From positions 1 through 63,128 of the forward strand of contig CATOJW010000019.1 of the NCBI GenBank assembly GCA_951800365.1: 63,128 nucleotides of DNA, read 5' to 3'. Position numbers and translations under genes: made by a program. The notes under the pieces were generated by a model. That model was not told the origin of the DNA. It searched no databases and saw only the letters and a list, made by a program, of their open reading frames with translations. How positions within the stretch are numbered: position 1 is the first letter of the stretch; each line of letters begins with the position of its first letter. Shown piece after piece: positions 33,485-34,255 of this stretch. This stretch comes from an uncultured Lachnospiraceae bacterium. GTDB taxonomy: Bacteria > Bacillota > Clostridia > Lachnospirales > Lachnospiraceae.

Positions 33485-34255
33485 GGCTTTCACCGGACGC
33501 CAGAGGCGGTTTGTTCCTGCCCTTTGCCTACTCCGCTCCAAACGGTAAGAAAGTCTAAGGCTTCTGATTTCGGTTCATCCAACCAGACGAACCGGGGCGC
33601 AATTCGCCCTCATAACAACCAAAACGAAACAGGTGTAAGGAAGGATATTACCAACCATAAAACATCCGCTTCCCTATCGTCCGGGCTAAACACGCCCCTT
33701 TTTTTGCATACCCTGCATAGAAGCAGGATATGCAAAAAATTCTAGGTAATTCCACAGAAACCCAAGACTTTCTAACCGTTCTCCGAAGTCGCAGGCAAAG
33801 GGCAGGAGCAAACCGCCTCTGACTGCTAATTGAATAGCGATAGAAATTATATTTTATTACAGGACAGAAACAGATTTTTAGAAAAGTTAGAATGTGATTC
33901 TTTTTTGTTTCGGAGTCAAGAAACAGCCAGATTCGAAAACGGTGGGCAGCCTGCAGTGACTTTGGAAAAAAGTTAGAAGTTCTTGGACTTCTGCTCGAAA
34001 ACCTAAGATTTTTTTCACATCCTGCTTCTATGCAGGGTGTGAAAAAAAAGGGGCGTGTTTAGCCCGGAGCATAGGAAAGAAACTGTCTTACGGTTGGTAA
34101 AATCCTTTCTTACACCAATTACGTTTCGGTTGTAATAAGGGCGAATTGCGCCCCGGTCTGTCCGGCTGGATAAAGGAAAAGGCAGAAGTCTTAGAACTTC
34201 TTGCTTTTTGGAAACCAGAACAGCAGGATGCCCACCGTTTTCGAATCTGGCGTCC
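33485..34255. repeat. Complete composite structured repeat: A element (minus, 33485-33825), about 90-bp AT-rich linker, B element (plus, 33906-34255). The cores are in opposite orientation and the whole is bounded by GGACGCCAG / CTGGCGTCC.
   Basis: A arms gaggcggtttgttcctgccctttgcc / ggcaaagggcaggagcaaaccgcctc. B arms cagattcgaaaacggtgggcagcctgc / gcaggatgcccaccgttttcgaatctgg. Shared core with hairpins. Confidence 0.9.

Follow-up and report, generated by a model that had tools for sequence, protein, structure and literature searches.

A repeated head-to-head pair of structured units, probably RNA and probably mobile, in a Lachnospiraceae genome and its link to TnpB-like genes

A 63,128-nt stretch (positions 1 to 63,128) of contig CATOJW010000019.1 of an uncultured Lachnospiraceae bacterium (GenBank assembly GCA_951800365.1), referred to below as the window, carries at positions 33485-34255 a composite repeat made up of two ~340-nt segments, units A and B, whose ~217-nt cores are 81% complementary and which are separated by an AT-rich linker. 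The locus is the reverse complement of another at 43725-44510, and the composite is found in both orientations in the genome. Repeat copies in the window were located by blastn and by nhmmer profile searches, and the 'sense' of a unit was defined by the strand of 33907-34263 (+). A preliminary description of the window had reported an abundant, modular, intergenic repeat at ten loci, with an A element, a linker and a B element in inverted order of cores. The repeat was recovered at all ten loci by blastn and nhmmer, it is confined to intergenic space, and the layout proved correct, the arms of A and B differing from each other and being self-complementary. The coordinates are collected in Table 1.

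Table 1. Repeat units, composites and related features in the window, and units found upstream of TnpB-like genes
Feature	Position or locus	Strand	Details
Composite outer end, A side	33460-33494	-	+ strand reads ATTAGGCTTTTGGAGATAGGATACTGGCTTTCACC; conserved past A tail in many copies
Unit A	33495-33830	-	Terminal rod, four-way junction, 3′ end ...CUCUGGCGUCC; nhmmer E 3e-108
AT-rich linker between unit heads	33831-33905		Conserved among ~30 composites
Unit B	33906-34255	+	Small 5′ hairpin, terminal rod, four-way junction, 3′ end ...AUCUGGCGUCC; nhmmer E 7.8e-113
Composite outer end, B side	34256-34273	+	TCCCTCCAAAAGAAATAT
Unit, full	13280-13632	+	nhmmer/blastn
Unit, full	33483-33840	-	nhmmer/blastn
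Unit, full	33907-34263	+	nhmmer/blastn
Unit, full	37701-38060	+	nhmmer/blastn
Unit, full	43719-44080	-	nhmmer/blastn
Unit, full	44161-44514	+	nhmmer/blastn
Unit, full	53270-53630	-	nhmmer/blastn
Unit, full	53857-54220	+	nhmmer/blastn
Unit, full	55943-56297	+	nhmmer/blastn
Unit, full	59260-59602	-	nhmmer/blastn
Unit, full	59955-60313	+	nhmmer/blastn
A unit crossing window end	62803-63125 (listed to 63128)	-	nhmmer
Unit, damaged, rod only	13078-13216	-	nhmmer/blastn
Solo A unit, internal deletion	47254-47505	+	Model positions 157-238 gone; nhmmer
Unit, damaged, 3′ truncated	50190-50446	+	nhmmer
Composite	13078-13632		B rod (13078-13216, -), full A (13280-13632, +)
Composite	37556-38060		A stub (37556-37700, -), full B (37701-38060, +); between PBP and NUDIX genes
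Full composite, reverse orientation	43700-44530		B (43719-44080, -), A (44161-44514, +); between ruvB and zapA
Composite	50055-50480		A stub (50055-50130, -), 3′-truncated B (50190-50446, +), tail 50466-50474
Full composite	53250-54225		A (53270-53630, -), 227-nt linker, B (53857-54220, +)
Composite	55808-56297		A stub (55808-55870, -), full B (55943-56297, +)
Full composite, diverged	59260-60313		A-like (59260-59602, -), 353-nt linker, B-like (59955-60313, +); adjoins tmRNA gene
Minimal hairpin, 59 nt	27757-27815	+	Unit termini only (GAAACAGCCAGATTTCGGAAC...GTTCCGAAATCTGGCGTCC)
Remnant, 64 nt	23908-23971		Both outer composite ends only (ATTAGGCTTTTGGAGATA...CTGGCGTCCCCCCATTCCAAAAAACTTAT)
Fam2 copy	151-328	+	
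Fam2 copy	3586-3771	+	
Fam2 copy	10036-10203	-	
Fam2 copy	10871-11044	+	
Fam2 copy	50606-50790	+	
Fam2 partial copy	47668-47727	-	
Fam1 pair upstream of TnpB-like gene	L003, L040, L149-151		Gene at L003:3437-4983
Fam1 pair upstream of TnpB-like gene	L152-153		L152 pair flanked by two divergent TnpB-like genes
Shorter Fam1 units upstream of TnpB-like gene	L159		~260 nt
Fam1 and Fam2 upstream of TnpB-like gene	L156-157	Fam1 -, Fam2 +	
Fam2 head-to-head pair upstream of TnpB-like gene	L162-164		
No units upstream of TnpB-like gene	L154		49% identical homologue

The minimum free energy of unit A is -191 kcal/mol (z -12.8) and that of unit B is -166 kcal/mol (z -11.4). The two subtypes have a ~200-nt core in common and unrelated terminal arms of ~28 bp. 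Among the 113 full-length units from which the architecture counts were taken, adjacent units lie head to head in 51 of 62 cases, all pairs are heterotypic (A with B), and the conserved linker keeps a fixed orientation, its length being near 65 nt in the modal case and ranging from 9 to about 350 nt. Both 3′ tails of the composite point outward into host DNA and are followed by sequence that is constant (GGTGAAAGCC... or YCCCTCC...), not variable. The termini GGACGCCAG and CTGGCGTCC proposed in the preliminary description fall short of the true ends, since full-length composites run further on both sides to ...CCAAAAG[AC]CT[AT]AT; many copies are shorter, with ragged outer ends. In the full-length composites an imperfect terminal inverted repeat (TIR) of ~15-18 nt is present (ATWAGKCTTTTGGAG...CTCCAAAAGMCTWAT), which many copies lack and for which no parent insertion sequence (IS) is known; CTCCAAAAGMCTWAT occurs nine times in the window against 0.9 expected. 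At some unit ends the tail motif is repeated in tandem two to three times (L031:173-, L016:3611-, L041:4665-, L109), for example as TCTGGCGTCC TCTGGCGTCC TTTGACGTCC, and the window has TTTCACCGGACACCA...TTTCACCGGACGCCA at 37590-37640.

The ~340-nt unit is present in the window as ~15 copies or remnants (BLAST and nhmmer) which, together with those of a second, ~170-nt family termed Fam2, cover 9.3% of its length. Copies lie 3-12 nt past stop codons in compact intergenic regions. The motif YTGGCGTCC was counted 38 times against 11 expected, a number reached in 0/100 shuffles, and this count, taken with the half-unit fold z-scores, places the repeat far beyond chance. Eight loci had been described as composites; all of them contain the repeat, but only four have two full units, the A unit being no more than a stub at 37556-38060, 50055-50480 and 55808-56297, and the B core being lost at 13078-13632. 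Fam2, which had been overlooked, is a rod-like unit with at least five copies in the window plus 47 other loci, covarying arms and a fold z of about -10. Its termini, ACAGC...GCGTCC, are those of the main family (Fam1) and its interior is unrelated. No Rfam match to Fam2 was obtained at the gathering threshold or at E up to 10.

The expectation that the repeat would match no named family was borne out when Rfam was searched. With Rfam 15, only the transfer-messenger RNA (tmRNA), two tRNAs and a thiamine pyrophosphate (TPP) riboswitch passed the gathering threshold over the window, only microRNA-hairpin noise appeared within the locus at E up to 10, and a native locus in which the units are linked to a gene gave no match. 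Searches with the repeat found no match in phage and plasmid sequences by BLAST, 13 matches in an IMG/VR pattern scan, all due to chance, and nothing in JGI metagenome scans apart from one chance match. Neither the repeat nor the TnpB-like family at polysaccharide loci in Clostridia that is considered below was found described in the literature.

The structure of the unit was studied by computing a consensus fold and its covariation on 32 diverse units. The consensus comprises 88 base pairs in seven helices, namely a 28-bp terminal helix, ~26 bp more of rod with conserved internal loops, and then a four-way junction whose other parts are a 17-bp hairpin, a long-range helix around a variable domain, and a short hairpin. 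Standard pairs make up 98.9% of pair cells, compensatory change occurs at 50 pairs, and compensatory cells number 466 against 144 in shuffles, the observed value being reached in 0/500; when partners were slid by 1-3 columns as a control, pairing fell to 39-50%. Three conserved core hairpins had been proposed, of which two were mis-assigned, 'gggcgtgtttagccc' and 'gggcgaattgcgccc' being the two strands of the one long-range helix. The column pair 160/265 is GC in 22, UA in 7 and AU in 3 units, so that the local hairpins are broken and the long-range pair is kept; in the same way GGGGCG changes to GGUGCG or GGAGCG and is matched by a change of the distant CGCCCC to CGCACC or CGCUCC, the local partners remaining unchanged.

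Only the strand that ends in ...CUGGCGUCC-3′ carries the fold. On this strand G·U cells number 760 and A·C cells 65, and RNAalifold returned -144 for it and -99 for its complement. The ratio is alike for units on the + (404:34) and - (356:31) genomic strands, and replication-linked mutation bias therefore cannot explain the G·U excess. Four wobbles are nearly invariant (U·G in 105/113, a tandem U·G/G·U in 111-112/113 and G·U in 111/113). The tandem adjoins a conserved UUUA/GAAU internal loop and is retained in other species while the neighbouring pairs covary; the core loops and junction strands are also conserved across species. We infer from the near-invariant wobbles that RNA is favoured over single-stranded DNA as the folded molecule. 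The preliminary description had spoken of a foldback element or divergent structured RNA genes. In support of this, the fold does lie on the strands that diverge from the linker and the covariation is overwhelming, but no conserved promoter was found in the linker.

Selection was assessed on 52 sister pairs of copies that are independent in the phylogeny and show 81-94% identity. Substitutions per site were 0.059 in stems and 0.161 in loops, compensatory doubles were observed 146 times against ~10 expected in a neutral simulation, and pair-breaking singles 83 times against 324 expected. The divergence between copies, taken together with this constraint, indicates that the family is old and has diversified under a constraint on pairing. 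Wholesale swapping of arms was ruled out, the 18 arm types forming two gradually diverging clades.

A link between the units and TnpB-like genes emerged from clustering of the open reading frames (ORFs) in loci from metagenome-assembled genomes (MAGs), which brought out a 453-aa protein whose paralogues adjoin unusual units. The protein carries the Pfam Cas12f1-like_TNB domain and a precomputed Aq_aa04 domain, belongs to a family of 420-480 aa, matches the solved TnpB 9nzp at E 1e-5, and matches NCBIfam guided_TnpB at 2.8e-15, which is under the curated cutoff. To judge by its sequence, it is a divergent member of the TnpB family. In 120/120 homologues listed, Ala stands in place of the RuvC-III catalytic Asp, and the family thus looks nuclease-dead. 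In this respect it resembles the TldRs, RNA-guided repressors that lack the RuvC-III Asp and of which three groups have been described (bioRxiv 10.1101/2023.11.30.569447), and it looks like a TldR-like clade outside those three groups.

Seven cases served to examine the association, namely L003, L040 and the loci belonging to five homologues. In all loci examined, the TnpB-like gene is followed on its 3′ side by a conserved structured RNA ending GUUGUGCUGAGAGGUAU and then by a polysaccharide-type operon (GT4, ABC2/Wzt, ManC, GT2); no guide-target matches were found for the 3′ RNA. On the 5′ side, a unit and 150-620 nt of spacer precede the gene on the same strand, and this order was seen in five or more paralogous modules as well as in other genomes. 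Between L003 and L040 the modules show 72-83% identity over units, spacer, gene and 3′ RNA, and so were duplicated as blocks. The proximal unit of a gene-linked pair is A-like and the distal unit B-like, tail flanks included, and because these identities are the same, the abundant composite looks like the native pair without its gene. Note, however, that the ~15 window copies have no TnpB-family gene nearby and that the association is seen only for diverged native copies. The link, which the preliminary description did not contain, provides a plausible origin for the repeat.

A strong outward promoter and a palindromic operator are predicted beyond the unit tails, with a promoter between unit and gene. 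A conserved palindrome, CATAGAGTGG(A/T)ATACTCT, lies ~35 nt upstream of TnpB-like start codons and is mirrored across the unit pair (also at L149, L152 and L162), the L003 copies being at 2150-2178 and 3368-3395, and ACCGTCAAA direct repeats are located between unit and TnpB-like gene. Both the palindrome and the direct repeats are likely operator sites.

Insertion of the repeat was assessed by comparison with a sister species (GCA_947087455.1 and others), whose ZapA is 91% identical and which has in common with the window the gene order ruvA-ruvB-zapA-U32-PBP-NUDIX-M32-queH-tRNA-Leu-zfHC2-polA. A check for insertion polymorphism, as had been recommended, was positive between species: three orthologous intergenic regions, including ruvB-zapA and PBP-NUDIX, measure 136, 97 and 415 nt in the sister and 935, 590 and 1110 nt in the window, the sister sites being empty, and no copy of the main family or of Fam2 was found in the 47 kb of sister DNA searched. 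Right-hand junctions are clean (e.g. ...AAAAGACTTATGAAG/ATCCTCT at ruvB-zapA, the slash marking the junction), and sister homology picks up again just outside the A-side outer end at 33460-33494. The flanks of solo units, inspected for a fixed 4-5-nt target of the IS200/IS605 kind, have no common short motif beyond the element's own sequence. An integron attC or cassette array was rejected as an explanation, the flanking genes being housekeeping genes (ruvAB, zapA, PBP, polA) that stand in the same order, without elements, in the sister.

Copies decay in a recurrent manner. Rods are often deleted at one junction, GAGGCGG/TTGG, and the products include rod-only units, the 59-nt hairpin of unit termini and the 64-nt remnant of outer ends. 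In 4/4 degenerate window composites it is the unit running in the sense direction of the neighbouring genes that is damaged, and solo units between co-directional genes are antisense in 13 cases and sense in 3.

A genome collection was scanned for the unit, the figures being matches listed and hence lower bounds. At least ~80 eight-kb blocks of one uncultured Lachnospiraceae MAG (CBFFYP01) carry the unit; among the matches listed there was also one in a different Lachnospiraceae MAG (L023) and one on a contig assigned by binning to Erysipelotrichaceae (L050), and the remaining matches listed were due to chance. The L050 contig originates from a sequencing study that also yielded contigs of the window organism, and it may be mis-binned. 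The window organism recurs in many metagenome assemblies, in which contigs often break within the repeat. L149 and L150 (positions 1-2070) have an identical composite, TnpB-like gene and GT4 operon and differ in the genes to the left (GARS and adh_short, respectively), reflecting either a rearrangement or a join made at the repeat during assembly. With assemblies broken at repeats and contigs with different left flanks joined at the composite, both binning and synteny are affected.

One interpretation of these data, and the one to which we incline, is that the repeat is a ~0.8-kb, non-coding, non-autonomous mobile element of two head-to-head units, probably acting as RNA and derived from the module upstream of TnpB-like genes. 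The units would most likely be RNA genes read outward from the linker, with their fold preserved by selection. Each folds on one strand only, into a ~55-bp rod that is closed by the conserved ends 5′-ACAGC...GCGUCC-3′ and topped by a four-way junction whose core is invariant. The ancestral pair would have had a fixed place upstream of the nuclease-dead TnpB-like genes that precede polysaccharide operons in related Lachnospiraceae, so that the gene-linked copies would represent the source, and in the window species the gene-less pair, single units and the shorter Fam2 would have multiplied into intergenic DNA. Their spread would have needed mobilisation by an enzyme acting in trans. If the units are RNAs, they would be one of the few bacterial examples in which a large non-coding RNA with an elaborate fold acts as a mobile element, and the TnpB-like link suggests that there is a so far undescribed branch of RNA-guided regulators of transposon origin, equipped with an additional RNA-like component.

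Several observations weigh against this interpretation. The highest identity between any two copies is 94.6%, which gives no sign of current activity, and the compensatory changes could stem from active master lineages and not from function at each site. No target-site duplication (TSD) was found at the three sister-compared sites or at 32 composites, divergence of intergenic DNA limiting the resolution of this search. No transposase was identified by Pfam among 20 window ORFs (30 ORFs being checked overall), ORF clustering of ~570 kb of the related MAG revealed no multicopy ORF family or transposase, and a six-frame motif search of ~1 Mb of the organism's DNA found no IS200-type TnpA (Y1) motif. 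A consensus scan of the linker found no conserved sigma-70-type promoter, a -10-like box there is not conserved, and some linkers are as short as 9 nt. Finally, the L154 homologue without units makes the association with TnpB-like genes clade-specific.

The main rival, which we regard as possible but distinctly less probable, is that the fold acts in single-stranded DNA, the element being a PATE- or REPIN-like mini-transposon of the IS200/IS605 type whose ends, joined by the terminal stem, are cut by an HUH/Y1 enzyme supplied in trans, and the strand bias marking the transposed 'top' strand. The native copies do sit at loci derived from TnpB, an accessory gene of IS200/IS605 elements, the fold is specific to one strand and brings the conserved 5′ and 3′ termini next to each other, and neither a clear TIR nor a TSD was found. 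The termini common to two families with unrelated interiors are what would be expected of enzyme recognition sites, the tail motif is at times repeated in tandem, and the 13:3 excess of antisense solo units amounts to an orientation bias relative to replication. IS608 and ISDra2 insertions are reported to have the top strand on the lagging-strand template. The bias of the solo units is opposite to that of these elements, and the Y1 motif was absent from the ~1 Mb searched. Furthermore, hairpins that bind a transposase do not usually contain an invariant tandem wobble or a four-way junction whose loops are conserved, and transfer of a single strand would allow no more than one unit of a composite to fold, the two being carried on opposite strands.

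It is also conceivable, if improbable, that the units form a new class of large structured RNA working with the nuclease-dead TnpB-like proteins, as a second partner, a decoy or an outward-reading scaffold. Were this true, hundreds of intergenic sites would have been seeded with parts of an RNA-guided regulation that originally served surface-polysaccharide operons, and an outward-reading scaffold would draw its specificity from the flanking DNA. The version of this idea in which the units are working partner RNAs, either extra guide scaffolds or decoys, in a genome-wide RNA-guided regulatory network appears unlikely to us. It would account for the recurrent order of unit, spacer and gene and for the outward-facing tails of the composite, and the proteins are uniformly catalytically dead, like known RNA-guided repressors (bioRxiv 10.1101/2023.11.30.569447). 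However, the place where a TnpB guide RNA would lie is already taken by the conserved 3′ RNA, the unit tails are followed by conserved sequence where a guide would vary, a promoter lies between unit and gene, no guide-target matches were found, and the L154 homologue does without units.

A view of the units as inert palindromes in DNA, or as sequences that terminate transcription or stabilise mRNA by accident, with arms kept complementary by gene conversion or hairpin-templated repair, would fit the position of copies close behind stop codons, the nearly perfect Watson-Crick pairing of the outer rod and the frequent loss of rods at one junction, as expected of unstable palindromes, but is very improbable, because conversion of arms can neither yield a 12:1 excess of G·U relative to A·C that follows the orientation of the unit nor keep specific wobble pairs invariant, and because core loops and junction strands are conserved across species. 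Intrinsic termination was ruled out, a terminator scan giving no site inside the units and a U tract being absent behind every hairpin, whichever strand is read; on both strands the 17-bp core hairpin is preceded by a U run and followed by an A run.

Some further features of the window were recorded. Its GC skew is -0.17 to -0.43 in all 2-kb bins, and the minus strand carries nearly all long ORFs, the tmRNA, both tRNAs and the TPP riboswitch; the window lies within one replichore with very strong strand bias. Positions 47-125 are 100% identical to the first 78-79 nt of two contigs of MAG CBFFYP01 (L108, L076). This is the sole non-repeat match between the window and that MAG, and as it holds a perfect hairpin (TATTAAAAC...GTTTTAATA-like) it represents another repeat or a contig-end artefact. 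A 102-aa ORF at 60311-60619 aligns with no more than positions 25-98 of the MCP signalling domain, which has 172 positions in all. Its end falls in the final 3 bases of the B unit that stops at 60313, and it may be the remainder of a gene after an insertion or a rearrangement. Finally, a 1086-aa ORF on the minus strand (20177-23437) contains at least six tandem 66-nt (22-codon) repeats at 20230-20757 and is probably a repeat-containing surface protein.

Among known systems, the composite resembles miniature inverted-repeat transposable elements (MITEs) and foldback elements, such as Correia/NEMIS of Neisseria, in being non-coding, high-copy and intergenic with inverted ends, in being absent from orthologous sites of a sister species, and in decaying by internal deletion. 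Unlike MITEs, it is 3-8 times the typical size, has two independently folding halves and a strand-specific fold with heavy covariation and invariant wobbles, and comes with no TSD and no cognate DDE transposase in ~570 kb of the related MAG and the window ORFs. With the PATEs and REPINs, that is, ORF-less IS200/IS605-type elements and REP doublets moved by Y1/RAYT enzymes, it has in common a likely function at the level of a single strand, inverted doublets, the lack of a clear TIR and of a visible TSD, and, through the TnpB-like genes, a tie to the IS200/IS605 world; strand-specific folded ends are likewise found in the units (760:65, with termini joined by the terminal stem). It differs from them in its ~340-nt units with a four-way junction in place of ~20-100-nt hairpins, in having no GTAG-type motif and no Y1 or RAYT gene in a motif search of ~1 Mb, and in the native position of the unit upstream of a dead TnpB-like gene, which is fixed at polysaccharide loci.

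Like an omega RNA or a TldR guide RNA, the unit is a structured, RNA-like module of large size that is physically linked to a gene of the TnpB family and has ORF-less copies dispersed in the genome, and the TnpB-like proteins lack the RuvC-III Asp as the TldRs do (bioRxiv 10.1101/2023.11.30.569447). Unlike these RNAs, it is found on the 5′ side of the gene, ahead of the promoter, is followed by no variable guide, has no Rfam match, and leaves the 3′ guide position to a separate conserved RNA ending GAGAGGUAU. From the large ornate non-coding RNAs, namely HEARO (the IscB omega RNA), ROOL, GOLLD and OLE, the unit is set apart by a rod-dominated shape, an obligate inverted pairing and the lack of an Rfam 15 match at E up to 10; it is like them in its length of several hundred nucleotides, its multi-helix junctions and its strong covariation. 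Some of these RNAs, HEARO for one, are multicopy and transposon-linked.

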